A stretch of 62,854 nt of DNA, filler included, from Dugesia japonica (Eukaryota): the NCBI GenBank assembly GCA_001938525.1. It is 6 parts of 6 records of this genome, joined end to end, with 100 filler letters (N's around TTAATTAATTAA, not from the genome) between each part and the next. Parts side by side here need not be neighbours in the genome. Positions count along the whole stretch, not along the records: positions 51,980 to 62,854 come from MQRL01612449.1; 5 more parts are not named here. One strand, 5' to 3'. The number at the start of each line of letters is the position of its first letter. Positions within the stretch are counted from its first letter, which is position 1. Made by a program: the position numbers and the translations under genes. Shown piece after piece: positions 35,401 through 62,854 of the stretch. The notes below the pieces were generated by a model. It was not told the DNA's origin, did not search any database, and saw only the letters and a program-made list of their open reading frames with translations.

Positions 35401-37183
35401 CCATGACTTCCTTTTATTTGAAACTTTTTTAGAATAATAATCAAATCAACTCTTATTATTACATTTTTATTGTTAGGTGAGTTTGGAAAACTCCTCGAAT
35501 CATTTATATCAGAATTCAACTCCATAAATTTATTAAAATAAAAACTATATCCATAATTATTCGTTTAAACAAGCAAATTAAAACTTCATGCTCTAATCGG
35601 AAATTATTTTTCAAAAATTTAAAAAAATTTAGATTTAAAATTTGATTGGTAATTTTTCATAAAATTTTAAAACAAAAATAAATTATCATTCGTATTAAAT
35701 TATAATTTAAAAATTTTTACAAAAATTTAAAAAAAAACTTTCATAAAATTTTCAAAGCAAAATCACTTGCTATTAAATTATTATTTTAAAACCTTCTGAA
35801 CTTTCAAAACAAAATTGACATTTCGAAAAATTTGAATTTATTTTAATTTCATAATTAATTTGTGATTTTGAAAATTTTTAAAAAAAGATTTTAACTCGCT
35901 TCTAAACTACTCATATTTATAATAACTAAATAACTTATAAAAAAAATAACAAAATATCTACGTTTCTTGTAGTAAAAAGATCTTTGATGACATTCTTAGC
36001 AGTATGAAGTAAATAATTTGAGGAAATTTAACTAAGCATTCTTTTAAAATATATATTATTGTTATAAAGTCGTTTTAATTCCAAAGAACAAACTTTTTCC
36101 CATATCGACTTNNNNNNNNNNNNNNNNNNNNNNNNNNNNNNNNNNNNNNNNNNNNNNNNNNNNNNNNNNNNNNNNNNNNNNNNNNNNNNNNNNNNNNNNN
36201 NNNNNNNNNNNTTGAAAAATATTGATACGAGGTTTCAAGAAAATCATAATAAATCTTTGGAAACAAGTGTTAATGTTATCCAATAAGCTTCTGTCAAAAG
36301 GAAGAAAAACGTTAATTTCAGAAGAGAATTGAGCACTCCGGAAATTCTGATGAAGTCAAGTCCGGAAACCTCGTCGAATTTGAATGTTCGTAAAGTTTTC
36401 TGACAACGAATTCTGGAAAATCCATTTCGATATTATCTGATTCAGAAACCGAAGGAAAAAACAAAAGAATTGCTCAATATGTCAATAATGAAAAATAATA
36501 CTTCAAGACAGATCGCGCCAATCAAAACCAAGAAATTAGAGGGTTTATATTAAAAAAATCCATTAAAAAACTAACTGGATTGTAGCCTCAAAAGAATTTT
36601 TCTCCATAATATCCCACATATATTTTCTTCAACGATAAAGAAACCTAGATTTGGAACAACTGTTATAAAATTCGAGCATCCAATACGAAATTATATAATT
36701 TATTCCAGCTTACAAGATAATGCTTATGCTTTTCGCTATAAATAAATGATTTCATATTACCACAAATTAGAATTAATGATACAAATAGTGGCTAATGTAT
36801 TTCCATAAGAATGAAATTATTTTTCAAAAAGTCATTAATATTATAAAGTCATGATGTTATACATTAGTAAAATAGTAAAATTTACTAATGAAGTTTTGCA
36901 AATAAAAAAATTTCTCAATAATATAATTCTAAAAAAAACAAATTCTAAATAAATAATTTTTCAAATAAAAATTTCAAATAAAAAAAATTCCAAATAAAAC
37001 TAATGCTCTCTTGAACACCGCTGTCGGCTCACAGAAACCACCTAGGAATTCTAAAATAACATATCCCGTGAAATGGCATTTTGTGAATAAATTTACGAGA
37101 GAAGTAAACAAATTTCATATAAAAATACATTTTTTTAAAAAAAAAATTTTAATATAATTTTTATAGAAAAATAAAAAGTTCAA

Positions 37184-39466: not shown

Positions 39467-42400
39467 TCTGAGTAATAAAAATTGCGATTAGTATGTTTCG
39501 ATAAAGTCAATCAATATTACTTAATAATAATGAATTGATTGATTCATGTATGTCAATTATTAATGAGTAATTTTGTGACGTCAACTCAAATTCGTTTAGG
39601 CTTTATTATTTTCGATTTTAAATAAATTATTAGTTTTGTGTTTAGAAAAATATTTTTGAGATTGCAAACTTATTTTTATCGAAATGCAAGCCTTGTTTAA
39701 ATGATATTAAACTTTGATTCTCAGTCAATTCATGGAGTTATTTTAATGATTCTAGAGAGAATTTTCCCAAAAAAATTTATTGATATAAATGTTTTTTTTT
39801 GATTAATTTACGTAATAAAAAAATTATTAAATTATTCTTATTAATAATAAATCTAGATAATTTATTTGAAGGAGACTTGCTCTGGGTACACATATCGTAA
39901 ACAGAAATCAATTGTTTTGTCAAAGATGGATTCCTTAAACTAGTTTAAATGATTATTTATCTCATGATAATAGTCTCAAATATTTTTAAGTGATTGATTG
40001 AATGGCAATAAGCAGCTCAATAATTCAAGTTTATATGATAATAATCAATTACAACTATTTTTTATTTATTGAATAATAACTGTTTGATAAAATTGAAATG
40101 AAATTATTTTTATATACTGTTTGTTTTTAATTATTTCAATTACTCTCAAGAAAATGGGTTCTATCCTTTATGTTTCCCCCCAAAAATATATTCCAAAATT
40201 TAAAAGTATTCAATCTGAACTGTACGTATGTTCTACATTCTATATTGCGACATCTCCAGTAATCATAAGAATTCGTAATTAATAGCACCATAATATTATT
40301 AGTTACAGAATGATTTTAATCTAAGAAAAAATTGTGATAAATCAATAAATAAACTAATTTAATAATTAAATAATTATTAGTACAAAGGAAATTGGTGAAT
40401 GACAATATGGAAGTTTAAAAGTTCAGATAAATTTTTCAAGCTATTGAAATAATCCAATTATTTTAATGAGCGGTTCCTGGTGAAAACTGTAGTATTTTTG
40501 TTTTTTATAAAAATGTATTTTCTTACACAAAAATTCGTGTATATAAAGTTAAATATTACGTAATTCTTTTTTGTTTTAGTAAATAGATTTTAATTTTAGC
40601 GAGATTACTTAATGTCTGAATGAAATATTAACAATAGTTTTACTGGCGACCACGCCAAAAATATTAATTTGAAAACTCGCAATTAAAAAGAACTGTTAGT
40701 CGAAAAGAAAAGCTCAAGAACTAATTAATTTTCAAATTCGATGTTTAGATGGCAGAAACTCCGATGAAGCCGAACGTTCTTTAAATGATATCGAAAAATC
40801 ACTAATAATCAAAGAGTTTTGGTTAACTGGGGTCTTTGATTTGCTTTTGTCTGAAAAAGCCGCAAACTTGTGAAAAATTGTAAATGAGAAACGACAACAA
40901 AGGAAGAAGCAAGAGAGTAGCAAAAGAGAAACTTTTATGATAAAAAAATAAATCACCGGTTTATTATGGAACTTGCAGAGGTAAAACAAAATCATGATGA
41001 GAAATTCGCTACTTTCGAAATTTGAGTCCGAAATCTGTTAATTAGTGTGCCGAATTCTGGATTGTCCAAAGAAGTAATTGTTAGGGATTTTCTTTCCAAA
41101 CGCGCAAGAAGTGCCGGAATCTAAGAAGTTCTTATCACAAAACCATATATATCAATGGGAAATATTCGCAGTTTGGTTACCTGATCTAGTTGATTGAAAT
41201 ACTATAGGATTGAATTCATATCTTGGCCTTCCCTTGTCATTTAACGTAAATTCATTTCTGTTTTCGTGTAATTCCGCTTTCCATTCCCTGGATGTTTCTA
41301 TCTATGTTTTAAGTCTATAATCAAATACTGATACAAACTTAAATATTTTAGCTTGCAATTTGCGAACATTATTGCATGCGTTTGCTAACGAATTTTGGAT
41401 CANNNNNNNNNNNNNNNNNNNNNNNNNNNNNNNNNNNNNNNNNNNNTTAATTAATTAANNNNNNNNNNNNNNNNNNNNNNNNNNNNNNNNNNNNNNNNNN
41501 NNCTGATATTTTTGTTAAGCAGAGCTAACATTATAGTTTGCATGTAACTTTTAGAGAAACTTGACAGCATTGATATGATCATAATTTGTATATGTTATTA
41601 CATAATAAATTATTATTAATAACCGACTAATTATACAACTAAATCTTTCATTTTACTCGGTGTGCACACAAAATTGTAACATTAACTATAAAATTTTCGG
41701 AATAATAATAAACAATACGAGGTATACTTGTGATGAAACAATAGAATTCTTCAGTTAATATTTAATTTCACTGAAAAAATAAAAGCACCGATTAATTATT
41801 CTTTTAACTCATTAAATTTTCGATAATAATTTGTGCCGAGAAAAACTTTGATTTTTACAATAATGATTTCAAAATGGATTTTTGTTGAGAAATTGAAGAA
41901 TCGAGGAAATAAAATTCAGACTATATAAATTTAATATACGTGTATGTGTCAATTATAAAATGGTGTATTGCGTCGAAAAAAANNNNNNNNNNNNNNNNNN
42001 NNNNNNNNNNNNNNNNNNNNNNNNNNNNNNNNNNNNNNNNNNNNNNNNNNNNNNNNNNNNNNNNNNNNNNNNNNNNNNNNNNNNNNNNNNNNNNNNNNNN
42101 NNNNNNNNNNNNNNNNNNNNNNNNNNNNNNNNNNNNNNNNNNNNNNNNNNNNNNNNNNNNNNNNNNNNNAAAAATCAATTTAACTGCTATATATAGTTTT
42201 TGCGTTATATTGAAAAAATTATCATGTGAACTATCTGATCAATGATTTACTTTCAATAAAATATTCTAACAACAAGAATCATCTCAATTTTATTAGAATT
42301 TTAATAAATTGATCAGTAACCAAAAAATTATACTCCAATAATAGAATTAAATTATTTATCATAAAGAGAAATTTTGAACTCCAACGAATTATTTTGAAAT

Positions 42401-43119
42401 TTTAAACAGTATTTCTGTTTTAATTTTAAAAAGGGCGTACTTTTAAATAGTGTAAACTTTGGAGCGTAATTTTTCATAGAATATTAATAACCATTTAATT
42501 GTGTATGATATTAAATGGAACCCGTGATTACTTTTTATTCTTTTAGTTCAGGATTACTTAGTGTGATATGCTCATTGTTTGTTTTGTGTGATTGGCCACA
42601 CAACCGGAATGCAACCTATTTTACTTATTTATTTAGTNNNNNNNNNNNNNNNNAAAAACGTCTACAAATTCTTGCTGTGAATAATTTAATTTGATAATTA
42701 AAATGTTGAAAGAATATTAATTAAAAATTTACAAAAGAAACAAATTACTAAGTGAGTCAATTAAATGATGATTTCAATAATGCAAAAGAAATCCCAAAGT
42801 ATAATTTGCTTTTGTTACACAACTAATTATGTTTGACTCTATCTAATCTCATTAATAGTTCTTTTAATCACATTTTTCAGTCAACAAATCGTTTTTAATA
42901 ATTACCAATATTCCACTCTATTACGATTTATTTAGAAATGCATGGCAAACAAGTTCATTATATACGGAATGGTACAAGCAAGTATTTGTTCCAAAAGTAA
43001 CCCNNNNNNNNNNNNNNNNNNNNNNNNNNNNNNNNNNNNNNNNNNNNNNNNNNNNNNNNNNATGGCACTGAGAATAAGAGCTTTAAGGTGATGTTTTCCC
43101 ACAAAAATAACACCAATTT

Positions 43120-43305
43120 ATAGGGTATACATTAAAAACCGCGCACAAAAACAGCGACAATCGAAACCTCGAGTGTTTAATTATAGCACCAATCAAAACA
43201 GCGCATCATAATAATATATTAAATGTTTTGATCGGTGCTATAATTAAACACTCGCGGTTTCGATTTTCGCTGTTTTTGGTGCGCAGTTATTAACGTAACC
43301 ATTTA
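43120..43305. repeat. Foldback/MITE-like inverted repeat with ~64-bp core arms and a 23-nt loop
   Basis: 43137-43200 is the reverse complement of 43224-43288 with about 5 differences. Confidence 0.9.
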
Positions 43306-43477
43306 TTAACACTATTGTGCCGAAATGTGATAAAATCACTGAAACAGCGCTACAGAAAGCACATTGGATTACAAAAGGCATGGATTCATCAATGATTTTA
43401 ATAGTGATCTCAGTAGGAATTGACATAAATGGAATAAATTTCCTCAATAAAAACTTCATATTGAATGACAGGATTCC

Positions 43478-44150
43478 AGTGGACTTCACGGACCAATGAA
43501 TAGCGATCTGATTTTTGCTTTGATTCAGCCGACGTTTACACACTTTGGCCATATTTGGACTTCCGTAATAGACTTTGTACTATATATAAACAAGTGGTCG
43601 TCAACCGTTGGGACTTTACGGGCCAATAAAATTATTTTCAATCCGACGGACCAATGATTAGACCAATAACAGGCAACATCAAAGTCCCAAAGGTTGGCGA
43701 CCACTGGTTTATATATAGTATTAGGTCTATTGCTGAAGTCCAAACAGTGTCTAAACGCCGGTCGAATCAAAGCACAAATCAAATTTCGGCAGGTCGCTAA
43801 TCATTGGTCCATGAAGTTCGCTGGTTTATATATAGTACAAAATCTATTGTCAAAGTCTAAATAGTACCAAAGTGTCTAAATTTCGGCCGAATCAAAGCAC
43901 AAATAAAATTTCGACAGGTCACTAATCATTGGTCCATCGGATTGAAAATTATTATTTTAATGGTCCGTTAAGTCCCAAAGGTTGGCGACCACTGGTTTAT
44001 ATACAGTGCTAAGTCTATTGCTGAAGTCCAAAAAGTGCCAAAGTGTCTAAACACCGGTCGAATCAAAGCACAAATCAAATTTTGGCAGGTCGCTAATCAT
44101 TGGTCAGTCGAATTAAAAATTATTATTTTGTTGGCATGTGAAGTCCCAAA
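43478..44150. repeat. Complex satellite: ~130-170-bp unit, three direct copies plus one inverted copy
   Basis: ctggtttatata..tctattg..gaatcaaagcacaaat..caggtc.ctaatcattggtc at ~43681, ~43815 and ~43971; reverse complement at 43480-43660. Confidence 0.9.
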
Positions 44151-44407
44151 AATTATAGAACGGTTATTGTGTATATGTTAACAAAAATGCAACAATAAAT
44201 TATCAAAACTAAAATACCCAGTCAAATTATAATAAAATTAACGATTAATTTGTATTATAAGGTTAGAAAAAATGAATTTTCAAAAAATATTTCATTATTC
44301 ACTTTATTTAAATTGAAAATTAATAAACGTTTAGAAAATTTAAGCATTAAATTACTAATTAAATAGAAAATATTTTATGAAAATTTAGTAAAAACTAAAA
44401 TACTTAC

Positions 44408-45396
44408 TAATTCAGTGGATAATTTTTGTTTTTTACATATTGTAACTTCTAATTCCGTTTCCGATAAATCTGTCGCTTCTTCTTCTTCTTCTACTACATT
44501 CGATTCTTTTTCTTCACTTTCAGATGATGAAGATTCTCCGTTTATTTCTTTATTAATAAATTGAAAATGTTTTTCAAATGATATTATAACTACTTTTGTA
44601 TGATATTCCATGAATTTTAATTCGTTCTTCTAAAGGCAACATCATTGCTATGTCAGCTTCTTTCCATGACTCTTCAAACATTTTCAGTCTGGACTGACAA
44701 ACACTGTATTGTTGGAGAATCTAGACACCAAATAATTACAAATATCATTATGAGAAATTCACGAACATATTTCGGTGTGTTTTTATCTTGGAGTTGCTTT
44801 ACAAGTTCATCAAATTTAATTTTTCCTTCAAAAGACATTACATTATTAATACTGACCCAACCACGTTGAACGTATGGTCCAAAGTAAACAACATGTACAG
44901 TTTTTTTATTAACGATTTCTTTATAAAAATTCTGCTCGGGACTTGAATAAATCATACATGGCCACCAAGGATGAGATTTAACTTTAGCCCATAACAATCG
45001 ACCGACATAATATTCATTTGGTATTTTTGTAGTACTAATTGAACTATGTTTGCGTTTACATGATTTCATGGGTTCAGATTTTATTTCTACACTTATTGAA
45101 CTTACACTATTTGTCAAGGATTTACGGGGTCTTAGAGAAATTTTATCAGTTAAATTGAAATCGTTTTCAATTTTAACTTTACTATCATCACAAGACAGGT
45201 AAAATGACTCATTTTCTGAATCTGTCATAGGATCAGTAGCTTCACTTGAATAAGAGTCATCATGTGTTAAATTGAAAATTTCCAAATTATTTGAAATAAA
45301 TTCAGTATTTTCTATTCGTTCATCACCGGATATTTCAACTTCATTTAAGCATATATCGAAATCATCAACAAAATATTCTACTTCATTCGCGATCAT
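44408..45396 (-). CDS. NSD1/2/3 (Mes-4)-family H3K36 methyltransferase, 5' exons with the first PWWP domain; exons 45396-44767, 44720-44594, 44547-44408
   Basis: YYVGRLLWAKVKSHPWWPCMI..HVVYFG..QRGWV..FEG..FDEL. Two 46-bp GT-AG introns keep the frame and give WKEADIAMMLPLEERI. Donor GTAAGT at 44407. SET and PHD exons are not seen. Confidence 0.8.
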
Positions 45397-47899
45397 ATCG
45401 AATTGAATATTCTATGTTAAAAATTTTATTTTTTAATAATTATTTAATATATATAAATTTACGAAAATGTATCAAATTATTTAATCAAATTTTATTTACA
45501 ATTATTCAAACAAATTGTAAGTTTGTATTATACAAAGGCAAATTTATTGTTTACTTGATTGTGCGTCGCATTTTATTTTGTTATGTTTAAAGATTTTAAA
45601 ATATATTTAAATAATTAATTTCAATATTATAGATATTATTTTTAATTTAGTTTAAATAATTTAAGTGATTATTTAAAGAATTGAATGGCTTTGATTAAAA
45701 ATTAGTTGGAGTTACAAGTAAAACATCAAAGAATAATCGGAAAAAATATTTCTTCAGTAATATCTTACTTTATCAATAAAAGCTCCAATGATTTATAATA
45801 TTTGAGAACATAAATAAAAAGATGTTAATGATTAATGTTACTAAATGACAAACGTACTACTGAAATAACTTATATATGAAAATAATCAGTATTATCATGT
45901 CTCTTTGGCAATGGTAAGATTTTATGAACTATAAATTCATTATTTTTGCAAAATTCCTGTTTTTAAATATAAATGCCAATTTTTAGTATTTTTTTTATAT
46001 CAGAAGAAAATAGTAATAAATGAACTAATGGATTTTAAGTAACTTTATTTTAATTGATTGATTTCAACCGGTATTGTTGAATTCATATGACGTTGAGCAT
46101 CTTGGTTGAACCTGCTTTGTAATGATTTTTTCTGTTACTGCAAAGAGAACTTGTAGAAGTCATAAGTATCTATACAGATATCCTTACTCTGGCTTGTGAG
46201 GATTCCAAATGAGAACCTAATCTTCCTAGAGTGTTTGGATACCCACATTTTATTTGAATCCATCTTGATTTTCTGATATCTACTATAAACTTGATCTTTG
46301 AAAAATTTAAAATATAATAGTTCTGTGAATTTAATTTCTAACTTGCCTCTGCTGAAATCTATTCATTACGGCTAAAAAGAAGACCATAATTACCCCAAGC
46401 ATTCACCAGGTTTATCTAACATACTTTTGAAGAAATCACAGTGGCTCCAAGTTCTTCTGAAGTTCTTCTTTAGTTCAAGTCTAGTAAACATACATTAATT
46501 CGTCATGTTATTGGTGTTTAATTGACTAGTTTAGTATATAGTTATGTTAATTCTGAGCACTTTAAAGTTTTACATAAAAATTTTTAGGCTTGATTAAAAT
46601 GATAACTATTCCCAACACTAAGTCATCTGTTCGTATTTGATACCAGCACTAATTTAATAAAGCTACTTTCACAGCTCAGAAATTTAAAGTGATTGGACAA
46701 GTAATGAGTTTGAATTACGTTTCATTAACTTTTTCAAAGTGTTAGGAATTATGTCCAGAACCTTGCTGGAAATCAAAAAACGAATTTATATAAAATCAAT
46801 AACTCAATTGTGGGTAAAAGTTATTGTTACTTGATTGTGTTTATTTTTTGTTGTGTATATAAAAAAATTAAACAATATAAAAAAATAGATGAAAATAAGT
46901 TCTTGAAAATCATGGTTTATTTTGTACCCATTTATGTATGTATATTGCATTCTCATGTGGATGACTCTTTGAATCTATTGAAAATGTAAAACTTTAATTT
47001 ATGACCTTAAACTGTTTAGTTTAAGCAAATAAAAGCTTGATAAAAATTTCTTACTTTTCTAAAATGATCAAAATAGCGATTGAAATAAAGGATGTTTCTA
47101 AGTTCGTTACAACTGAGCAATGAAAATATAGGATGAAACAAGCCAACAATCATGAACAAAGAGAAGAAACAAATAAATGCCCAAAACAAGTTTCTGTGAT
47201 CTTAATTAAAACCAAGATAAAAATGACAAAAATAAAAGATCGAAAAACTTGAAAACAATCGTTTTGTTAGGTTAAACCCAAGGAAAATTACTGGCGATCA
47301 AATTGTCTATTTTAAATACTTTTTGCTATATATATGTGTGTAGAAACTGTTCTTCTCAGTTTACCGGCCAATATTTATTGCCTCGTAAAAAGTCTCAAAT
47401 TCTTGAGAATTTCTTGTTTAAAGGTTGAAAATAATAAATAAGAAAAACAAAAGAATGAAAGAGATAATAAAACTAAATAAAAAGAGAGTGGTAAAGTTAA
47501 AAATAGCTAAACTTTGAATTTTTCAATGAGAAAAGTGTAAATAAGCAAATATTTTTTTAAAGATAAGCAGTAAATTAGTACTGAATTAATAACACTTATG
47601 GGACAGTAATGCTGCAAACAGATCCTTTAGATACCTAATGGAAAGTAAACAGCAATTAATCAAAACAGTGACTATATGAAAAAAGATAATAAACAACAAT
47701 GATAAGCTATGATATAATCAANNNNNNNNNNNNNNNNNNNNNNNNNNNNNNNNNNNNNNNNNNNNNNNNNNNNNNNNNNNNNNNNNNNNNNNNNNNNNNN
47801 NTTTATAACTTCAAAATATCTTTTACACATTTGATATTTATTTTAGTTTAATTATAATACTTACAGTAATTAACATTTTGATTAAATATTGTTAGAAAG

Positions 47900-49680
47900 T
47901 GTTGCATTTTGATTTTTAATAAATATTGTAATTTAGTAAAGTCTAATTTTGAAAGCAACGTAACTGCTGACCACGTCAAAAATGTCAGTGTAGTGACACT
48001 TCAACAACAAAGAAAATTAATTTTAGAATTTTTACCTAAGAAGACTTACCTAAGATGCTTTAGAAACTATAGCAAGGCTGAAAAAAATCGAAAAATTACT
48101 CATTTCGAACGATTTTGGTTTGATGAAAAACTTTGATCTCTTGTTATCAGAGAAACTTGGAGTTTTTTGGGAAAAGTTTAAGTGGGGCGGAATTATTAAA
48201 GAAGATGCAAAAAGCTGTTTGTAGATACCTTTTACAATAATAAAATTTAACACAGAAATAATATTGGAGTTTACAACAGTTAAACAAGAATCAGTAGAAA
48301 GATTTGTAACGTTCGAGATACTATTATGGAATTTAGTTAACTGTGTATTGAATTCAGGCTTAAGTAATGACGAAATTGTAAATGATTTGCTGACAAAGAA
48401 GGCCAGGAATCAAAATTGGCCAGAGACGCTTACAATAAGGCCAGACATTACAGTAGTCGAAATGAGATCTCTGGCAAAAATATATGATGATAAAGAATGT
48501 TTCCAATGGGTTACTGGAAATATAGATATTTATGCTATACAGAGAAAGAGTTATTCAAATGTGTTTAAAGTAGCCATGAAAGACGAGCTCAAAACCAGCC
48601 GTTAATTAGATTTAAAACCAATAATAATGCAAGATATGAAAAACCAAGAACAGAAATGTTAATGTACCAGAGAGAACACAACTAGAAAATGTCACAACCA
48701 GTGATTCCAAAGAATAGAACGCATGATTTAAGTAAAACGCCGACAGTTTTGATGAAACAGCTGGCAAAATTTAGAGGACTAACAGAACCAGAAGATGAAA
48801 AATTTCGAGAATGACAATGTTATTGTTGCGGAAAATATGGACATATGCGTTATCAACGTCCATTAAAAAACAAATTCTTGATTTTCGGGAAAGCTAGACA
48901 CAATTCCTGGTAAAGTTATCTTGTGCAAGATTGATCTAATAGCAAAAATACTAAATTTTAATAGATCCAAGAAGAACAAGAAGTACAAATAAGCGAAGAT
49001 TAAAGCTTCAAAATGCATGATATTGTCAAAGTAAAAACCAGAACAACTCCATTGCATAAATTTCGTCAGCAGAGTTTGTTTAAGAAAAGATAGTCCAAAT
49101 AGACATGAAAAAGACAAAAAAGATATTTATGAAAAAGAAGACGAAAGAGAGTGGAGCAGAGTAGACGTGAATGGAGTAAAATTGGAATTGTTATAGGTGC
49201 ATCTACTACAGTTATGAGAGAAGATTACTGGTCGAAGGTAAGAAAACCACCCTTGTTATGTTTCAACATCATATTAAATGAGGTATTTTCGTGCAGTGGA
49301 GAGAGGCCGTTGAGAATTGTAGAACTGAGCTTTAAATGGAAGAATAAAATGTGAGTTATCAAAATCATAACAGTTAAAAAAGCAACCACAACTTATTGAG
49401 GGAATAGGTGCAATGAAAAGTTTCTGAATAAAATTAGAGAATTTAATAACATTGAAACTGAATATTTCATAGAAACCACTGAAACAATAATAGAAAGAAT
49501 TATGCATTAAATGTCTTTAAAAGAACAAATAACAAATTCAGATCTTTCTTTGGTGTAACGAATTACTACATGCGTTTTTATCAAGGATTACGGCAGAATT
49601 GTAACGCATTTGTAAGAAGCTGCCTCAAAATGTGACGAAACATTGATGTGTACAGATACACACAGAACAAGATTAGGTAG
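47900..49680 (+). mobile_element. Degraded Gypsy gag-pol remnant
   Basis: CYCCGKYGHMRY knuckle (~48820), VDVNGVKLELL.GAS protease-like segment, YYMRFYQGLR-type RT thumb trace (~49565). Confidence 0.55.
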
Positions 49681-50024
49681 ATAGTAACGCATGTAAACAG
49701 CCCCCCCCACCGGTAAAGCATTAAAAAATTTAATGTTTACGTGTTTGGTGGATTAACCTTTGGACTTGGTCTGGAAATTTGTATATAGAAGTACATACAC
49801 GGCAATTCAAATTTTTGTATTGACTTTCTCGAGCAATATGTCATGTTATCATTAGATGTGTAATGACTCAGAGGATCTCATGATAAAATCCACAAAAAAA
49901 TCAAGTGTGGCGGTGACAAGTTAATAATAATATAAGAGTTATAACGCCTTAAGCATCCATTTTTGATCGATCAACTTGATCTTGGTAATATTTCGTTGAA
50001 AATTTAAAATTACCTATACGTTAC

Positions 50025-51300
50025 CTAAATGACCTTGGTCGTATAATGCTTTGTTTGGCACCACCACAATAATTGTAGTGACATATAATTTATAGTGATC
50101 CTCAATCGCAGAACAGATTTGTTAATCCTCAATGATGAGATGAATTGTTCGCATAAATATGTACTACCAAATATTGACATCATCCTGGCACACACAGCGA
50201 GTAAATTTGCATATATATCGCGTTGCAAGCATTTAAAGAAATCCATAAGATCAACAGCTATATACTTTTGTTTTAAAATAGTGCCACATTGAAGTTCCAA
50301 TATCTCCATTTGTGATTAATCGAGGACACTCTATACACCCACTGCAAATAGCGCAACAAAAATTTAAAATTGTTGTTAAAGCTTTCTAAATTCCTGAAAA
50401 CGGCTGTCGAATTCTATCCACAAACTTAAAATTATACCTACGAATTCCTTCATTGGCTCAGATTTTACTCTTGCTACCTACTGCAAATCTGAAAAATAAG
50501 GCAACTTACCGTAGTCAAATTGGTTTTCGCATAACAAGAGCTTGGATTTGAACGACTTCCCACTATCAAAAATTTGAACAATCATCTGATTTGCACCTTA
50601 TGCTTTAAGTTCAGTTCATTCAAATGCATTATGGTATCAGTCAGAAACGCTAAACGAGATATAAATTCTGAGTCAGCAAGCTGAGGAACATCTTTATCCT
50701 TTATTGCCATGAATAGAACTATTTCTTGTCGCAAAGCAAAAATCCTCTTTAGAGCATTTTATCTATTTAACCATCTAACTTTGGTGTGAAACAGTAATTC
50801 ACCNTAATCAATGTATAGGGTAAACTGAAAGTAATTGAACTGTCTGTGAATGAGACCTCTTGTACGTATAAAGTTGATATTACGTACAAAAACGTACATA
50901 ACTTCATCCATATGCAGACTTTTGCAACAGAGTACTTCTTAATGAATTTTACAATATACTAATGTGAAAGTGCCAGTCACACAAAGATATTACAGTTTCT
51001 CTTTCATTAATCCAACAACGCCATTTTTTCCAGAGCATATTGCTGGTGCACTATCAGTTGCTACAGACACAANTTTCTCTCACAGTAATCCAGAATTTTC
51101 AAAGCATATTTCCAGTTCATGAAATATCTCACGCCCTGTTGCTGTGCCTTTAAGAATCAGGATAATCAGTAATTCTTCTGTTACATTCAGAGCTTTGTCA
51201 ACTTCTCAAATAAATGCTGCACATTTGGAGGTATCGGTTATGAATGCTCTTACATCAAGAGTAATTGACCATGCTTTAAATCATTTTGCATTGAATCATT
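50025..51300 (-). mobile_element. hAT Buster/Charlie (GTF2IRD2/SPIN-like) transposase pseudogene
   Basis: VATDSAPAICSGKNGVVG, HTKVRWLN, LRQEIVLF, MEILELQC, MSIFGSTYLCEQFISSLRINKS. Confidence 0.88.
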
Positions 51301-52079
51301 GATGTGTTTATCAAATAAAATTTTTCAAAAGGCGAACATGAAAAATGTATAAATTTACTACGATCAAAGCAGAGTACTAAAGTAGTGAGACATGTCAGCA
51401 TGACACCACCCCCCCCCCTAGACAAAGAAAATTTCTAGATTAGGATGACTCATCGTTTTTTTTTAAAATTTATTTTCCCTAAAACTTTATTTACATTTTT
51501 AATAATAAGGAAGAAAATAAAATAACTCTGGTTATAATAACATTTATTAACATAAATTTAAACACAATTAACATTTAATAAACAGAATTAATATCGTAGT
51601 TTTTTATTACACTTTGGAAATATTGAATCCATAAATTTTCTTTTCAAATTGTCCTTTTTCTCTAAACAATTTTCGCCATTGTTATCTTCTTTATGATATT
51701 CTTCAAAAATGTTGATAACTTTTTCTATATCAACTCCAGTGATTTTCTTTATTTTGAACCAAATCATTTCTGGTGCGCAATAAATCATCTCCTCTCTACC
51801 ACCACGATAAAGAAGCGCGAGTAAATCCATGAACAATTCTAAAAAAAAAATAAATAATATAATTCAAATGAAATTAAACNNNNNNNNNNNNNNNNNNNNN
51901 NNNNNNNNNNNNNNNNNNNNNNNTTAATTAATTAANNNNNNNNNNNNNNNNNNNNNNNNNNNNNNNNNNNNNNNNNNNNATTTGAACTTGTTTTACAAAT
52001 AAATTTTGTTTTGTTTTGATCGAAGCCTTATCTTATTTTAATGAAATAAATAATAATTATTTAATAGATTTGGTTTTAT

Positions 52080-52920
52080 CTAAAGTACGTTTAATTTTGA
52101 ATTTTTAGTATTTTTCATTCGGTTTTGAACAGCTTTTCTTATTTCATTTACTTCTCTTTCATTAAAATTGACGTGCATTTTCAATATTTTAATCAATTCT
52201 TTATTTTCTATATTTAAATCATCAGTTTCTTTACCTAAGATTTCTACAGCGTCTTGAACTTTACGTAAATCTATGTAAAATTCAGGTGTTAAAACAGATT
52301 TACTAACTACCGATAGTTGAATTTTATTATATTCATCTTTAATTTTATTTTGAAATTCAGGACTATTGCCAATTTCTTCAATCATATCATCAATCATTTT
52401 TTAAAATTTAATTTAATTGATCTGTTAACTTTTTTTCTTCAATTAATTTAAGATTTTCTTCATCTAAATCACAAATCGTATGACCCATTATTTCAATACA
52501 ATGTATGTAATGTTTGCTTTTAATAAAAAGATCTAAATATAATTCAGCTTCATTAATTATAGATAGCTGCTGTACTTTATCATATCTTTAATTTTATTTT
52601 TAAACTCATCAGTATTAGTTAGTTCTTCATTCATTTTTACAATTAATTTTCAGGATTTAATTGATTAGTTAATCTTTTATTTTCTTCAACTATTCTTTTT
52701 TCTAATATTAATTTATAATTTTTTATACTTGATTTCTCAATTTTATCATCCAGTTTTTCAATTTTTTCATTCAACATATCAGTATAAAACTCATATTGTT
52801 TGAACCTATTAAAAAAACTTTCTGCTACTTCAGGTCCATCAGTTACAGCTATTTCCTCTACTTCTTCATGGAGATCTTTTATACTATTTTTAAATTCAGG
52901 ATTACTAATTATTGAATTAT
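52080..52920 (-). CDS. Tandem triplet of small paralogous coiled-coil ORFs (52397-52080 intact; 52634-~52410 frameshifted; ~52920-52644 without a clear ATG)
   Basis: Shared motif NSPEFQNKIKD / NTDEFKNKIKD / SNPEFKNSIKD. The first two also share EI.G....DL..EN..LI. Confidence 0.65.
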
Positions 52921-53070
52921 ATTAAAATAAAGCAATTAAACAAGTGATTTTTTATATTTAAAAATTAGCTTTTTTCTTTTTATTAATAATTAAATTAGCT
53001 TTTTATTATTTAAATAACTTTTATTATTATTTCGTTTCATTTATTTAAAATAATGTAATTTATTGAAGTT

Positions 53071-53316
53071 CAGTAGAAGTCAAATAGGTGGAATGAGCCT
53101 TATGGCGCGCTTTTTCCATTTTCGAGCCACTTTTAAATGATTATTAATAAATTTTATTTAAAAAATTTACTAAATTTATTGAATTTCTTATTTTTGTTTC
53201 GAATTCTCAGTTTTTTATCTTTGAGGAGCGAAAAACCTTAGAAAGTGGTCATTTTGAGAGTGACGAAAAATGCAAAAAACGTGTTAGGGCTCATTCCACC
53301 AATTTCATTTCTACTG
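53071..53316. mobile_element. 246-bp MITE with ~29-bp TIRs (CAGTAGAAGTC...) and a candidate 3-bp TSD (GTT)
   Basis: cagtagaagtcaaataggtggaatgagcc pairs with ggctcattccaccaatttcatttctactg; gtt on both flanks. Confidence 0.8.
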
Positions 53317-55189
53317 GTTTCTTTTTCTTGACTGGGGCTTTCTAATAATAATAATAATATGAAGATTTAAATAGTATTAACACAGACACCATACCGGATA
53401 TAGTTTAGATTACACAGGATAACAGCACAGCACATATATTGTTTATATAGCACAGCAAAACATAATATATAGTTTAGTAACTCTATTTTACAATTACAAT
53501 AATTGCGAGAATAATTCTTGGACCTAACCATTGATCGCACTTGAGATTTCGTTGAAATAATGGTTTCGATAAAATTTAATTGCTGTTTTTTAGATATTCG
53601 GATTTTTGACTATTATCTTCTTCAGAATATAACTTTATGATATATTTAAATGATATTAGAAAATTTTTACAAAATTGCTGGTATTTAATTAAAATTTTAT
53701 TGGATGATTATAATAAAATTTAAATTAAATTGAAATTATTAAATGTTATATTATTAAATTGTATTTTTTTNNNNNNNNNNTCAATTTTAATTTTAATTAT
53801 AATCATCATAAACTACATTAATTTTATTCAAATAGAACAATAAATATAAAAATATATGTTTTTATTATTAAATATTATATTTTTAAAATTTTTATTTCTT
53901 TTAGTTTTGTTTTCATCATGTTTCGTGGTCCCAAATGTATTTTTGATGGTAGAAATATATGCAATAAAACTATCACTTATAAAATAACCAAAGTTTAAAT
54001 AAAATTACAAATTTTTATTAAAATAATTTATCACTATTAAAAAGAAAATGTTAAAAATATTTACAAATTTCAAATGCATTTGTTGAAATATACCGTGAGA
54101 AAACAATCATGAATTATACCAATTATACCAATTGTCGCTTTTTATTATCTAATAAAATGAAGATGAAACAAAATATAAAAACCATACTATAAATTATTCT
54201 AACAGAAAATATCATAGTGGCAAAATAAATTATTATTAAAAATACTGTAATTATGATGGAATCACTAACTATAAGTTTACTACTGCAACTAAAATTAAAT
54301 AATAGCCATAAGATTAATAGGTTACGTATGAACAAGTACAAATTATATGTAATATATTTAATATTTCATGAACAAATTAAAAAAGCAAATTTAATTCAAA
54401 CTAATAAAATACTTTGTTTTTTTGGGATTTATATTAAAAGAATTCCCAATATATTTTAATCTGACTTTGAGTTTATTAATTTAAATAAAAACTCAACGAA
54501 ATGTTAGTATTTGAATACAAATAAATAAAAGTATATTAAAATTTCAAAAATAATTAGTTATACACTGTCATCACACTAAAAATATTTTTTTCAAATTCCC
54601 TAAAAATAGGATAAAAATAGTGATTTTTAATTATTTATTAAGCACTTTTGCATTAAAATTTTTNNNNNNNNNNNNNNNNNNNNNNNNNNNNNNNNNNNNN
54701 NNNNNNNNNNNNNAAAACAAATCAATACAATACCAATACCAATATAATTTATTGAAACGATTTGTGGTTTTATATCATGATTAAGACGCTTGAAAAGGAT
54801 CTTAGAATACAATTACCAAACTCACTATCCAAATAAGCTAAAATCAATATCAAAATTAAACATACCAGACATATAATTGTTTGTGCATGAAATAAAATTA
54901 GAGATCACAGAAAACAAAATTTCAATAAACTATAAGGTATTCCATTTCAATAAAACATATTATTCGTGTACTAATTTTTCAAAGTTTCAATTAAGTTGAA
55001 AAAAGGATTAGGTGGAGAGAATCCACGAATCGCTAGATAAATTACATAAATTCAGAACAAAAATGTTTAGCAATTCGTTGAACTAAATTAGGGAGAATGT
55101 CGCCGTCAATCTCAAATGAAACTGAGTAGTCATCATTGTTCCACGTATCATGTGCTACGTAAAGTGGCCAGTCAGCGATGTAATGTGTA

Positions 55190-56510
55190 ATATTTCCTTA
55201 AGATTTTCAGAGACTTGTCTGTGATCTGAACACACATCTAGAAACTTCGCTCAACATCATTTTAAATAATATGAGCAAATTTAAAAGTTAATATTTCGCT
55301 AACGGTATACTTTTCAGTGTGATCTCAAAAAGAAAAATTGTCTATCTAAAGATTCAGAAATATCCTTTAATACAGAAAACCCCACATTCTTGTCAATAAC
55401 AGAAGAAAGTTTTTCTTTTATAAAATTTGTTTCTTTAGCGCATATATTGCCAATTCTATCAATCACATTGGTCACTATTTCGATTTAAATGAATTGTGAT
55501 AGACTATTTGACTCAAAACGGGTGATTGAATCTCCAAAAATCATAATTTGAAATAATATATGTGATTTCAATTTTGATTGATTTTTCAGAAAAAAAGATC
55601 TTGTGCAATTTTTATTAATTTTTATAGTGACTATCAGTTTGGAAGTAAGGCAAGTCTGTCTCCAAACTTTTGAAAATCTAAATCCTAGACAAAAGCTTTT
55701 TTGACTTTAGAAATAATACGATCGACATTTCCGTACATTACATGGATTTGTTCACAGACTCTGTGAATTCCACGAATGAGACATGTCAAGTGAGTTATTT
55801 TGGGATAAAAAAATCTTGTATAGCATGTGCTGCTTTTACCACGTATCTTGCAACATCTGATATAAATAGCAAAATGAAATCCTTATTAAAATCATCTCAA
55901 AATTTTGATTGAGTCATCAAAAAGACATGCAATCGTCGAATGATTTGCATATTCTAGAATAGAAAAATTTAATAAATATCTCTGGTTTGCTATTTGTTCA
56001 TTTTTATCCAAAATACCAATAACGACATTTACCACGTATCTGCCAGATATATTTGTTGTTTCATCTATTGATAACCACAAAAAAACGATTTTAGATGCAT
56101 TTTTTAATATTCTCAATTGTTGTATAGTATATATTTAAACATATTTGTGCGAATAGTAGTTCCAGATGGGACTTTGCGACCAGTATGCATTTCGAGAAAT
56201 AATTTTACTTTTTCATGTCTTAAAGGTATATCTCCAGCGAAAAAGTCTATGGAAAGATCACTGGAAAATTAGTCATCCCCAGATCTATTTGAATTTTCCC
56301 CAGTTAACGATTGGGTAGATTTTTTGGCTACACTCTTTCCCTTAAGTTAAATGTTTTTATTTCTCCAACTGTTGTTTTACAGTACATAGTTTGCCACATG
56401 AAACCGATTTATTGCATAGTTTACAGAACAGAATTTTTTCATATGTTTTAAATTTAGAGTATTTGCTCACATACTGATTTAGCTTTTTTTGAGATTCATG
56501 TATTTGGCAT
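55190..56510 (-). mobile_element. hAT transposase pseudogene (CGGBP1/DUF659-like)
   Basis: LWLSIDETTNISGRYVVNVVIGIL, NHSTIACLFDDS, FISDVARYVVKAA, THLTCL...IHRVCE. Confidence 0.8.
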
Positions 56511-56738
56511 TTTCTATTGTTTTACTTATTAATACAAAGATAAGCTATCATGTCGAGTGCAGTCAAAATATTTCCTTAGAAGAAATTTTAAATATAAAAT
56601 TCAGTAACGATTCGATTTAGGTTTTTAATTTTTTCTAAAAACAATCAATTATAATTTAAATTAAAACCATCCAAATATATACATACATATTTTTGGTTAA
56701 CTTAATAATAACTAAATACACATTTGAAATAATTTTAA

Positions 56739-57880
56739 TTACTCCATAATGTTGATACGTTTCTCATAATATTTCTTGAAATAATCCAAAAATCTTCTCT
56801 TTATACTGTTTTTAAATTCAAATTTTAAGTCAGGTATATGAAATTGATAGTTAATATTATTCTTTAGTTCTCTTTGAAGCTTATTCCACCTTTCTTTGCT
56901 AATTTTCTTTCCTAATACGATCTCAGTCAGGCTCTTTCCAGTCGTCTTCTGCATTATTTCATTCAATGTAAATTCAATATGACTTCAAACAAAGTGTTAG
57001 CTTCTAATCTGTTTGTCTTCTTATTAGTTGCTGTTGTCACTACTTTGCTCTTCTGACAAAGTTCAAAACTACGAACTATCTTCTGTATTTGCTCCACAAA
57101 TTCTTCGCAATGTATTTGTCTCTCATATATTTGTTGACTTTCTCAACTCCTGCATAACATAATAATTAGTGTATTGCTTCTATTGTTTCATTTTTCTTTG
57201 CCATCCGGAAGTTTAATTTTCTTAATTAAATTTTTTTCTTCAGAAATTTTTAATTGATCCACTTTTCTTTTTCTACTTTGTTCAGTACTCTTGTTTTAAT
57301 CTTCCCTTTCTTTGCATCTTCATGTGACATTTGACATTGTACACATACCTCAAATTTTGGTCTAGATAACATATCTGCATTACCATGTTGAATTCCTTTT
57401 CTATATTATAACATGATGTCTAGACTACTCAGATAATTAATCCATGTCTGGAACTGTGACGCAATCTGTTTCTTTGTCGTCAACATGAAATTTAGAACTT
57501 TATGATCTGTTCTAAGAATAATCTTCTACCGAATAAGTAATGCTTGAAATACATTCAGAAATAATAAACAGCCAATAACTCTTTTCGTGTAATGAAATAT
57601 TCCTTCTCACAACTCATCATTGATAATTATCCATAGGCAACAACTCTTTCGCTTCCTACTTCATCTCTCAATGACAATATTTCTCTGATTGTATCGTAAC
57701 TGGAATCTGTAACTAATATAAATTCTCTGTTTGTCTGGAAAACACAATTTGGGCGCAGTCGTTAGGGCTTTCTACAGACTCTCAAAGTATCGTTTATTTC
57801 ATCTGTTCATTCTAACTTCTTGTTGCTTGATCCACTACACAACTGTTCTAAGATTCAATGTTTTCCGTTTTATGACGTTG
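56739..57880 (-). mobile_element. Degraded Gypsy pol (RNase H, integrase)
   Basis: FILVTDSSYDTI, ERVVAYG, YFITRKELLAV, ILRTDHKVL, IQHGNADMLSR, integrase H..LCY and C.LCQK traces. Confidence 0.85.
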
Positions 57881-58783
57881 TTTTAGTGAAATTTCATGTT
57901 TGTATTGAAAGTTGAAGACTTCACTTTCTTTCTGTTTGAAATATTCTTTAATTCTAGTTCGGGTGGTTCTACATATTTTTCCTTAAACAAGATACATTTT
58001 ATTTAGACGTGACATCTTTTATTGCATATATTTCAACCATCACAAGTGCATTTGGGACCACAAAAATCTGACTTAGTTTCTGTAATTGGATACCCAAAGG
58101 TGCTTGCTTCAAACACTGTCAACTTTATAATAATTAAAATTTACTTCAATAAATTATCCAATAAAATGCATACAAAATAAAAAATTGTAAATGTTTCTAA
58201 TATTGCTTGAATCAATCAAAAATTTAAATTCCCGAAGAAGATAGTCGAAAATTAACTACCAAAAAAGAAATGAAAAAACAAAACAATTTGATCAAAGCTT
58301 TCAATTTAATAAAATATAATATGGTATATTGCAAAGAACTCATCTGTTTGTGATTTAACATAAAATAATACAGACATAACTTAAGCGTTATTTAGAATGA
58401 ACAGCAGAAACTAGACTTATAATCATTGTTTTGAAGTACAGATTCATTAAATAAAGTTAATTGCATTCGTTTTTTTAAATTAGTAATTTATGTTTTATAA
58501 ATACAATAATATTTCCCATTTTTACAAATATAAGTGAAAATTTAAATAAATCATCCTACATTTATTGTCAATAAACAAAAAAGCATACTTTATTGCAGCA
58601 TAAAAGAAAATTAAAGCACATTCGACAATTAACAATACAACCTAGCAAATGAAAAATGAAATCTATTAAGTATAATATTAATAATAGTAATGAAGAAATT
58701 CCTCATAAACCAAAGTATTTCAGAAGTGTCGGAATAAATTCGAAAAGTAAACAAACAATAATTTTGGATATTTGATAATAGAT

Positions 58784-59054
58784 TTAATTTAAATTAATAT
58801 TGAACTGTTCTCTGATGCAATCGACGAGATATTTTAACTCCTATTTAAAAATAATTTTAATTGATAATTATGACATTAAATACCAATATTTGGCCTCTTA
58901 TTGAATCTTCATCTATTGATGATCCCGAATTGAAGTCGTTCAAAGTCATTTTACAAGTTTCAATGTTATCCTTCAGTTTCCCGATATTTGAATTTAATGT
59001 ATCATTCAACTTTGAGTGAGAATTTGTTGATTGAAACACAATATATTCAGCTTC
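58784..59054 (-). CDS. Candidate last two exons of an unidentified host gene (59054-58884 and 58840-58784)
   Basis: tag acceptor, an open exon EAEYIVFQ..RGQIL, a 43-bp GT-AG intron, then in-frame ELKYLVDCIREQFNINLN*. Confidence 0.45.
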
Positions 59055-59629
59055 CTAGTTTTATACAATACTAATATACATTTTATCAAATAAATATAGT
59101 TGTTTATATTTAAAGAAAAAAATTAAAAATAGAATACACACAATTACTTTGATATATTTTAATTGGCATCTATGTAATTTTGGATTAATTTAAACTAATA
59201 AATCAAATCGGCTACCAGAATATGAAAAAAAATCTAATGTCTTCGGACAGACTTTAGTATCATTACNCTCAACAATGGGTTTATTATTTTATTGAGTATA
59301 AAAAGTACACTCAAAGTTTATTAGGTTTATTGTTTCGATATTATTTACACTCGGTGAAGCCTATTAAACTCAAAACATATTAAACATAAAGAAAATTAAA
59401 TACATACATATTATTAGTTAAATTCAAATCCTAACAACTCTCCTTAAATTGTATTTTATTATTACAAGTGTATTTGATTAAAAAAAATTATTTCAAGAAT
59501 AATTCATAGTATTCAAACAAATAATCTGAGAAAGTTTTCAATAAAATAATGAATTGTTGGATTTTGATCTTTTAATTTTTTCTCTATAACTCTCTGATCT
59601 CACTTACATATTTAATATTTCAACGTAAT

Positions 59630-61110
59630 GTCTAGGGGCATACCTAAAAACCCCAAGCATTTGTGTCACCTGTGACATGCCCCTCTTTTCCACGGATTCA
59701 GCGCGACTTTATGGTGTCGCGTCTTATTCACTTGATTCATGAACCCCAACACCAATCTCACTCATATAGTCAGTATTTTCTTTAACAATACAAACTCAAT
59801 GAATATAATCGGCCATACATAGCCGTTATTAAATCACACAGAAATCACACTAACATTGAAAACTATTTATTCATCTAAACAGGTACAATTAGGCGTCCAA
59901 ATCCACTGTATTAGTCTCTCCAACCGAATCGTCTGGCGTCGATCTATAGTTTCTCTATAGTTAAGCATAAGGTTCTCAAGGTGACAAACATGGAACTTTC
60001 CCGATCGGCTTATGTCTTGATAACATCCACCATGAACCGGTTTGCGTGCTGAAGGGACAATTTCTTTTCTTTAATCTGATTAAATTTTGCCGTTGACTTC
60101 ATCACCTGTACCTTCAGCCTCAGGATTTCATTCCGCAACTTGCGACGTTCTTCAGCCCATCGTTTCTTACATGCAAGTAATTCATTGTTTTTTATTTGAT
60201 CCTCATTAAGTTTCGACACAGAAATGTAAACGCAAATGATAACATTAAACGCACGATGATAAGTTGTGAAAATAAATTTAATTTAAAATTATTTTAATTG
60301 CTGTTACTCAAACAAGCATAAAACTCAAAAAATTACACTCAAAGTTGTACTGCCTCTGCATACTACTTTATCATGCTATATAAAACGAGGTGCAATACAT
60401 ATAACTAGATCATTATTACTATTTCAACAATCTATCAAAACAGAAATGACGAAACAAACTGAGCTAACAAAACTATTATCAACATTATGTTATCATCAAT
60501 CAGTAATGTGGTCTAGACACAGCGGTACCATGTCCTTCATTTGCATGAGCTCTCGGATAATACGAGCTTCCTTTGCTTCATCTTCTTCTGCACTTACTCC
60601 GACTATAGTATGGTTATGAGTACTTCAACCTCCTTCGCGGGTTCCAGACGCGCTTTCATCTTTCTTTATTTTTCTTCTTGCAGACATCTTCGCTGGTACT
60701 TCACCATGTGCCAATTTCCATTTTAATGGCTATCTGCAACTGAGCTGCTTCCAAATCTGCATATAAGCTTTGCATTATTAAGGCTTGCTCCTTCCTCACC
60801 TGAGCCATCATTGCTTGCACTTCTCTCCATTCAAGGTAATAGTTGCCATCCTGGTCTACATATGATGGTGCGACTGTCTCGACTTTCGTGTCTGCCTCTT
60901 GATCTTGTTTCAACTAATAAAAATTCATAAAGTGAGCATGATAAAAACGAAATACACAATTGTGAAACATTGAACAAATATTAAACATAAACGAGTTCTT
61001 CGGCCTATGGCCTAATGTGACTTCGCCCCCGCTTCTGTAGCGCGAACCAGAGAAGATGCCCACTAAAACAGCCATCTTTTCTAGTCCCGCCAGTGCGAAG
61101 CTCTAGCAAG
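59630..61110 (-). other. GC-rich cassette B: leader block 61110-60990, ORF blocks 60913-~60500 and 60219-~59910, and hairpins at 59634-59721
   Basis: Same layout as cassette A, and ORF 60219 aligns without gaps to the 19702-19380 frame. Confidence 0.6.
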
Positions 61111-61449
61111 AAGTTCCCTAACGATTTCCATAAGAGAATCTTTATTCGTCATGAAGTAACGTGGTTTCAATTCATTTAATTTATGATTTAATTATTATGC
61201 AATTTATTATACGATTATTTGCATATTCAAATGTCGAAAACTAAAGGAAAGAAAAATTGAGTGCATAATTATAATAACTGTATTCAACCTCCTTGAAAAA
61301 AATAAAATTGATACTGTGACAAAATTAACAAAATAATTATACACCTTTTCCGATTAAAAACACCAAAATAGAAAAAAAACTAAAAAATAAAGTTAAGGTA
61401 TTAAGTGGCACAAAATACCTTTTATTATTAACTAAAGTAAATCATAATA

Positions 61450-61930
61450 ATCGAGCTCCCATCCCACTCATGGCAATTTTGATCTAAATTTGTTTGTTCC
61501 TGAAAGCAGGATATTCTCATTCTATCAACCGTTCAACCTCTATCATTCCGTGTCCTCGTTTCCACTCAGTATAATTTTATATCTTTTCCATGGCATTTTG
61601 CTCTGATGTTACATTATCGCCATCGATTTTCTCTAATTTGACCCATAGCATTTGTCTCAATTTATTAATAATTCATTCAGCAACCTTTCACCAGGGTTTA
61701 CTTTCTATTCCTCTGAATAGGTATTTATATTCATTCCTTAATTTTATAACGACTTCTTCAATTGTATTTACTCGTCTCCCGATTTTAATTCTGTGGAACT
61801 TTCATATAATTATATTTTCACATTGATGTTAATAAGTACATTATGCCGTTTGCCATTGTTTCTCGAAGTTTCCTGTAACTGGTTACAATCAAATTGTTTC
61901 ATCTATTAATTTTAATTCTGTAAAATTTTT
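61450..61930 (-). mobile_element. Probable Gypsy integrase/pol 3' remnant upstream of cassette B
   Basis: Purine-rich decayed coding-like sequence with a KQFDCNQ-type integrase trace; weak motif support. Confidence 0.4.
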
Positions 61931-62102
61931 GTAAAATTTTATTTTTACTGGATGGGGGCACGACTATACGACTTCCTAAGACACTCGAACATGCAAGGTA
62001 TACATAGTAATATTATAAAAAAATTGATTAAAAATTTTCTTTTAATGTTTCGATCTTATCCACTGGTAAATGTTAACAATTGCAGTTAGGCAAAATTCTT
62101 AC

Positions 62103-62220
62103 AAGTTGTAATAAATAATTCAAAATTAATCGAAAAAGAGCGTTGTAATAAATAATTCACAATTGATTGCAAAAAAGGTGTTGTAATAAATACTTTAAAA
62201 TTAAAATGAAAAAGTGTTGA
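62103..62220 (+). repeat. ~37-bp tandem repeat, about three copies
   Basis: gttgtaataaataattca.aatt.at...aaaa.g recurs at ~62105, ~62142 and ~62180. Confidence 0.8.
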
Positions 62221-62854
62221 TTTTCTCCGATTATTCCAATTTTATTGCTACCAGCGTGTAGGAAAAATGAACTGCTGGTTAGCCAGCCAATCAGAACGGT
62301 TAATTCTCCTTTTACTACCGCTGATTGGAGGCTAGTCTAAGTTTCCTTGGTGTGCTTTTCTCTTATTGTTGGGTGTGATTTCATCCAACACACCAACTTA
62401 CAATTTCCAAATTATTCAGCCGGTCACCTCGTATGACCTCTGAATAATCGGTTTCGTTTCTATGCAAAGTCCTTATCTTAATCANNNNNNNNNNNNNNNN
62501 NNNNNNNNNNNNNNNNNNNNNNNNNNNNNNNNNNNNNNNNNNGCAAGATAACTAGGCCAGAATTAATTAATGAATTTAATAATATTAAATGGAAAATTGC
62601 ATTATTATAATAAATAAAAACGGGTCGTAGATGCCTTTCTAATATAATATTATAATATATTATTTTTATTATTTAACTTTTCATTTACTTTCATTTCTGC
62701 GTCGTTAAATTTGGGTCTTTTACGCCCGATTTTCCTTTTTCGATCTTATTATAATAATTCATAATAATAATAATTATTTAATAATAATCTTAATTGTAAT
62801 TGCTGGCCCAGCACATCATAATTTGTAATTTAATAGTTATTTCAACCGACGTTT

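Follow-up and report, generated by a model that had tools for sequence, protein, structure and literature searches.

The stretch of DNA analysed here (the window; 62,854 nucleotides of Dugesia japonica, assembly GCA_001938525.1) consists of six scaffolds (1-11640, 11741-20275, 20376-32807, 32908-41402, 41503-51879, and 51980-62854) separated by five identical spacers of the form N44-TTAATTAATTAA-N44 (11641-11740, 20276-20375, 32808-32907, 41403-41502, and 51880-51979). Because the scaffolds were joined artificially, the two gene arrays described below, cassettes A and B, have no physical linkage, and distances measured across a spacer are meaningless. At ca. 26% GC, the window is almost wholly debris of transposable elements (TEs), i.e., decayed relics of Gypsy, Polinton-like, and DNA-transposon origin with a few host exons among them, and the assembly here is both fragmented and dense in TEs. 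The features of cassette B on the last scaffold, of the relic upstream of it, and of cassette A are the following:

61420-61930, minus strand: purine-rich, AT-rich coding-like relic, earlier called an integrase tail; frame signal not significant
61241-61418, minus strand: T-rich intron-like stretch with GT at 61418 and a polypyrimidine tract plus AG at 61242-61241, matching an acceptor pattern that 17% of background 40-mers also match
60935-61240, minus strand: GC-rich "leader", structured by folding z; coding frame signal 65/500, not significant
60914-60922, minus strand: splice-acceptor-like site before B1, TTTTATTAG
60498-60913, minus strand: ORF B1, ca. 135 codons, broken; open over 60913-60704, then two other frames with internal stops
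60220-60497, minus strand: AT-rich B1-B2 spacer, ca. 280 nt, ending in TTTCTG without AG; the 60 nt after the B1 stop lack AATAAA
59889-60219, minus strand: ORF B2, ca. 110 codons, broken, for a predicted long-helix protein; matches protein P0001, frame signal 0/500
59752-59888, minus strand: spacer after B2 that holds a GT-rich tract and, at 59871, AATAAA; like both inter-ORF spacers of cassette A
59555-59751, minus strand: hairpin region, GC-rich to ca. 59630, folding z -2.2; readable as an element end, a short LTR-like terminus, or a decayed exon
59430-59445, minus strand: PPT-like + TGTTAGG site in AT-rich flank, a putative member of the cassette only
18606-20200, minus strand: cassette A on another scaffold, with A1 (20200-19868), A2 (19703-19380), A3 (19229-18845), and a structured end (18760-18606)
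18590-17350, minus strand: AT-rich RT/RNase H remnant directly after cassette A

Several of these landmarks had been listed in a sequence-only reading of the locus and were recovered in place on the minus strand: the acceptor TTTTATTAG at 60922-60914 before B1 (then called block 60913), the sequence TTTCTG without AG at 60224-60219 in front of B2, and AAGGAGAGT followed by TGTTAGG at 59445-59430, which is unique as a 16-mer. Both peptides quoted from B1 are also present, in different frames. The GC-rich leader is structured over 61160-61000, where folding z lies between -3.7 and -4.0, and the hairpins reported downstream of B2 fold with z down to -4.6 at 59840-59680 (120-nt windows, 30 shuffles each). 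Rfam returned no match at gathering score in the whole window and two chance matches at E≤10 in 58500-62854; hammerhead ribozymes, which would mark Penelope or Terminon elements when placed between ORFs, were not found by this search, and a hammerhead reading of the hairpins of cassette A was rejected.

Cassette B is a real though decayed coding array with at least two ORFs, B1 and B2. Reading frames were scored by a codon model for which cassette A was the only training set and compared with 500 shuffles. For B2 this model selects the right frame with 0/500 shuffles as good, and in the 5' half of B1 it selects the open frame (1/500), while the last and middle pieces of B1 reach 15/500 and 200/500, respectively. 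Neither the leader (65/500) nor the hairpin region (59/500) gave a significant signal, and the same was true of the upstream relic (81/500, and 82/500 with a model trained on pol); the leader at 61240-60935 may be a further decayed coding unit. GC3 lies at 0.39-0.55 in all seven cassette pieces (A and B) versus 0.14-0.34 in all eight pol or host ORFs, with about 0.2 for three host-like ORFs and 0.30 for the best frame of the upstream relic. The codon pattern of the cassettes is foreign to the host and to the adjacent pol relics. Codon composition likewise sets the relic at 61930-61420 apart from B1 and B2, and it is probably not part of the cassette.

External evidence for B2 as a gene comes from an exhaustive HMMER search of 1.84 billion proteins, run with a profile of A2 and B2 alone. 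A single protein, P0001, was found at E≤0.001 (E 3.9e-18), an unnamed singleton of 112 aa that is intact and encoded on a 554-nt contig without gene context. A tblastn search of the window with P0001 aligned its residues 4-91 to 60225-59962 with 64% identity across 88 positions (E 9e-32) and, in a second frame, its residues 92-111 to 59951-59892 (10/20 identical, E 0.41 when taken alone), so that B2 extends to 59889. P0001 and B2 are 62-64% identical and collinear to the C-terminus, but only P0001 is intact, whereas B2 changes frame near 59960-59950 and has a stop in frame at 60012-60010. Together they define a small protein family without annotation in the libraries searched: the best Pfam match of P0001 is DivIVA at E 0.0096, below cut-off, and its look-alikes in the ESM Atlas are generic coiled coils only. 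One locus from a GTDB scan (L001 in a bacterial MAG, 41% over 37 aa) was dropped as a chance match. For B1, a word-index protein search found no homologue, a weak blank given that the same method missed P0001 when B2 was the query, and the best ESM Atlas score of its 5' half (0.78) is uninformative. Pfam and PHROGs searches on the cassette yielded sub-threshold coiled-coil matches only.

The proteins of the cassette do not look like envelope proteins. B1 is predicted to be helical without a membrane segment, and the single-sequence AlphaFold model of P0001 is one helix over residues 16-110 (mean pLDDT 79.7, pTM 0.43). Since no stretch is hydrophobic over membrane length (19-residue hydropathy maximum ≤1.04 in 8/8 proteins or pieces) and a fold search against viral models gave 15 matches of which none reached E≤0.001 (best E 3.3), the cassette proteins are not Env. 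Cysteine makes up at most 1-3% of each piece tested, and the hallmarks of Env (signal peptide, fusion peptide, Cys-rich ectodomain, and C-terminal membrane anchor) were not found in the cassette. The helix predictions and the missing membrane segments and viral folds agree with the earlier view of the blocks as non-env ORFs, and the models show the B2 product as a predicted soluble long-helix protein.

Frameshifted pieces of B1 had been said to parallel peptides of cassette A and to suggest a third paralogue. These parallels are at chance level: without gaps they score 27 and 17, where best matches in the null average 25.2 and 25.8, and B1 with X at its breaks gives p=0.30 against A2 and no significant match to A1, A3, B2, or P0001. 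None of the nine pairs of B1 pieces with A1-A3 is significant, no similarity was seen between B1 and B2, and tblastx found no match between the two cassettes within the window. The sole pair of 42 with p<0.05 is A2 and B2 (gapped p=0.0015), whose RW and DRE words stand in the same gapless register with identical RW...DRE spacing. This likeness fails in three stricter comparisons: a heptad-preserving null reaches their gapless score 176 times in 1000, P0001 compared with A2 yields p=0.12, and a profile of P0001 and B2 recognizes A2 at E 4.5. Judged from these alignments, A2 and B2 may be distant homologues, and protein homology between cassettes A and B in general appears doubtful.

The two cassettes are more alike in design, and the blocks of B are decayed ORFs set apart by AT-rich spacers. 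AATAAA follows within 60 nt of three of five stops (A1, A2, and B2) versus 16% of random 60-mers, and the stops of B1 and A3 lack it. When the DNA after B2 was compared with the A1-A2 and A2-A3 spacers, only 2/1500 and 6/1500 GC-matched pieces were as good. For the B1-B2 spacer such likeness is missing (348, 619, and 150 of 1500 pieces as good), and support for spacer likeness is moderate since the pairs had first been picked out among 110 comparisons. The acceptor pattern occurs at four of seven sites against the 17% background, with no AG at B2, and the phase after the acceptor-like site is 1 for A2, A3, and B2 and 0 for B1. A3 has no in-frame Met and the first in-frame Met of B2 is residue 40, so that a shared upstream coding exon would be the simplest arrangement. 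By eye, A3 (18845-19229, minus strand) combines a coiled coil with an acidic, Trp-rich C-terminal tail that resembles an activation domain.

Our preferred reading, to which we give a probability of roughly one half, is that cassette B (ca. 61240-59630) represents a dead copy of an array of accessory genes carried by a multi-copy mobile element, with the element's replicative genes outside of view. The array would have come to nest in AT-rich debris of Gypsy elements and DNA transposons that is older and unrelated; the low GC3 of the pol relics suggests such a nesting of unrelated elements. The unit of the array would be acceptor, ORF, and poly(A) signal, and each unit may have been spliced to one common upstream exon and so have formed an alternative 3'-terminal exon, a model that we favor because A3 lacks a Met, that of B2 comes late, and A2, A3, and B2 all share phase 1. 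We infer splicing and poly(A) use from sequence signals, and the differing phase of B1, the missing AATAAA of B1 and A3, the un-A-like B1-B2 spacer, and an acceptor pattern at no more than 4/7 sites speak against the acceptor-ORF-poly(A) design. The products could be intracellular, oligomerising coiled-coil adaptors rather than fusogens and might serve RNA export or particle handling by analogy with CERV in the Cer1 element. Against mobility, neither termini nor a target-site duplication nor a second copy of the DNA turned up within the window, and P0001 as the sole homologue found, on a context-free contig, also counts against a mobile array. LTR retroelements are the likeliest single class of carrier, though the pol and LTR named in the earlier reading are probably not the carrier's own.

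In that reading, cassette B belonged to a Ty3/Gypsy element and formed the 3' part of its internal region, where several non-env ORFs were flanked by an integrase at 61930-61450 on one side and by a 3' LTR from 59436 on the other. We consider this unlikely, as no test upheld any of its three pillars. For the supposed integrase tail at 61930-61450, Pfam searches in six frames (the minus frames to E≤10) found no integrase or other convincing family, there is no relevant PDB match in the two of three frames covered, and in comparison with the three integrase relics of the window 1/27 pairs fell below p 0.05, that one through a charged stretch of little plausibility. The integrase core at 27242 served as positive control: Pfam rve recognizes it, though weakly, and it finds integrases in PDB at E 9e-5. 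A word-index protein search with this core gave no match, a blank as weak as that for B1. However, integrase tails are hard to detect: three tails recognized by eye elsewhere in the window miss the Pfam integrase families as well, so a decayed tail may still lie at 61930-61450. The relic there is AT-rich and coding-like and carries a loose G.G..E motif at 61555 that occurs otherwise only in the true integrase, a post hoc observation without D35E spacing. As to the claim of a pol remnant directly upstream, which would put the cassette in the env position, the identified RT/RNase H remnants instead lie downstream of both cassettes, with RT and RNase H directly after A and an RNase H relic near 57700, ca. 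1.7 kb after B.

At the proposed LTR start, the purine run and the TGT exist (eight purines, T, and TGT at 59445-59434), but the LTR edge itself found no support. No repeat in the 3.4 kb upstream, where the window ends at 62854, could be its partner, the start at 59436 lacks an inverted counterpart of 6 or 7 bp within 1.6 kb, and the 197 nt that follow are unstructured (z -1.0) with 25% GC. Base composition already drops from ca. 0.47 to 0.23 GC at 59630, ca. 190 nt before 59436. The PPT-like + TGT pattern occurs seven times at six sites in 125.7 kb (both strands), which speaks for the Ty3/Gypsy model as an uncommon signal; its presence 450 nt past B2 is mildly unusual but not diagnostic. An alternative edge at 59751 has an equal purine count (10/15), and the segment 59751-59555 has 6-bp TG..CA inverted ends at chance level, given 1.2 such pairs per kb; a terminus there is equally unproven. 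An 11-mer at 18606-18616, the end of the structured region of A, recurs inverted at 59741-59751, where the hairpins of B begin, and nowhere else; in cassette A it comes after TGG, like a primer-binding site. Pairing 59751-59555 of B with 18760-18606 of A as LTRs on the strength of this common inverted 11-mer was rejected (alignment p 0.13, not significant). An AT-rich 14-bp sequence that stands at 60992 and again, in direct orientation, at 59390 (2/1500) was also set aside as an LTR pair, being a pick from 110 comparisons that does not extend. The Ty3/Gypsy model draws some further support from the order in cassette A, where the structured end, TGG, and pol could by eye represent a tandem LTR junction, and from other elements with spliced non-env ORF3s (PMC5408684, PMC10309623). 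It is weakened by the unlike codon composition of cassette and relic and by internal poly(A) signals, which would cut full-length genomic RNA unless regulated.

Rather improbable, too, is the broader idea of an LTR-element family that has turned its env slot into an expandable array of small, fast-diverging coiled-coil genes. If true, each gene, equipped with a poly(A) signal of its own, would be an alternative terminal exon or a trans-spliced cistron, and A and B would represent distant subfamilies. Producing genomic RNA would then require read-through of several internal poly(A) sites, and Rev- or CERV-like factors permitting it could be what the cassette encodes.

Extra ORFs of retroelements are common and mostly unexplained. 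As described in PMC10309623, non-env ORFs often occupy the env position with mostly unknown function, and Cer1 of Caenorhabditis elegans needs CERV, the product of a spliced non-env ORF, for RNA export. CERV resembles the cassette products as a non-env protein made from a spliced mRNA and with a predicted leucine-zipper motif, but it is one 517-aa protein from five exons in a defined gag-pol-ORF-LTR element (PMC10309623), whereas the cassettes comprise several units of ca. 110-135 aa without an element frame; the two are likened by description, not by sequence. Bdelloid LTR retrotransposons are reported to carry ORF3s of CC, TM, GDSL, and DEDDy types, alongside Terminon ORFs, and thus include coiled-coil non-env ORFs with typically spliced messages that are common to several element classes (PMC5408684). 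Unlike the single ORF3 of each such element in that account, the cassettes form tandem arrays with internal poly(A)-like signals and without hammerheads. The giant planarian Gypsy elements Burro and GYPSM1 have accessory ORFs, some of them upstream of the polyprotein (PMC6431247, PMC13465017, PMC8532177), and this order fits the sequence of cassette then pol at A and B. In contrast to Burro and GYPSM1, the cassettes have no MATH, BIR, BCL2, ankyrin, or env domain in Pfam searches. Within the literature searched, with Repbase and most subscription papers outside its scope, no tandem array of separately polyadenylated coiled-coil ORFs is described in such an element. Tandem helical mini-genes, each separately spliced and polyadenylated, would be an unusual accessory-gene design, and the value of the locus, one decayed copy in a fragmented assembly, is as a lead toward genome-wide copy analysis.

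The layout could also belong to the host, as a pseudogenised cluster of lineage-specific genes and possibly an operon with spliced-leader trans-splicing, though we find this quite improbable. The ORFs lie on the same strand 150-280 nt apart with a poly(A) signal followed by an acceptor, within the 300-bp criterion for flatworm operons, and flatworm leaders end in AUG (PMC12582326), to which the phase 0 of B1 after its acceptor would fit. A2, A3, and B2 would nevertheless be out of frame with a leader AUG, and cassette GC3 near 0.5 contrasts with about 0.2 in the three host-like ORFs.

Very doubtful is a cargo of a DNA element, in which the leader would be what erosion has left of the end of a piggyBac-like transposase, with B1 and B2 as passengers or gene-trap exons, or alternatively a Polinton- or virus-like array. 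The leader (61240-60935) contains, collinearly at 61152, 61082, and 60976, three motifs that resemble those of piggyBac-like C-termini. Each occurs one to two times in the window, but they were written down post hoc and lie in three different frames. Neither a DDE_Tnp_1_7 core nor a piggyBac Cys-His domain was found at 61240-60935 by Pfam or PDB searches, and no terminal inverted repeat of the cassette was found within the window. Of the eight Cys/His ligands of the piggyBac H-CxxC-CxxC-C/H-CxxxH domain as described in PMC8086355, ca. four are present. The leader may be the eroded C-terminus of such a transposase, and Polinton-like relics were recognized by eye elsewhere in the window. Least credible of all, B1 and B2 could be unrelated fragments joined by nested insertions into an over-read "cassette", which the TE-dense, fragmented assembly, the missing B1-B2 similarity, and the un-A-like B1-B2 spacer would allow. 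Their common strand and the unusual codon pattern and layout that they share with the three-ORF cassette A speak against it.

The remainder of the window yielded several side observations. Host exons encode a Frizzled CRD (15613-16038, minus strand, E 3e-26), a PWWP domain (44674-45411, minus strand, E 1e-13), and a DXD glycosyltransferase (9698-9991, plus strand, E 2e-9). An intact ORF of 759 codons without introns at 37184-39487 (minus strand) has several hydrophobic segments and no Pfam family at E≤0.1; we presume it to be prominin-like. Polinton/Maverick-like relics with DNA polymerase B-like, capsid-like, and ATPase-like pieces were seen by eye at 20461-25800, 775-1260, and 11368-11688, where Pfam gave a weak Endonuclease_7 match only. 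A palindromic array of 171-bp tandem units and inverted copies at 43488-44150 is possibly a MITE or satellite. On the last scaffold, acidic helical short ORFs near its start (52080-52921, minus strand) are tandemly related (75% DNA repeat, spacing 249), and a pair of 64-bp inverted repeats (53921-53983 and 58002-58065, 84%) flanks a DNA-transposase-like relic recognized by eye (56500-55300) and a Gypsy RNase H/integrase relic (57760-56750). Beside an assembly gap, the GC-rich segment 62240-62484 is strongly structured (z -4.1) without an Rfam match, and three repeats of 37-38 bp lie close to it at 62105-62215.
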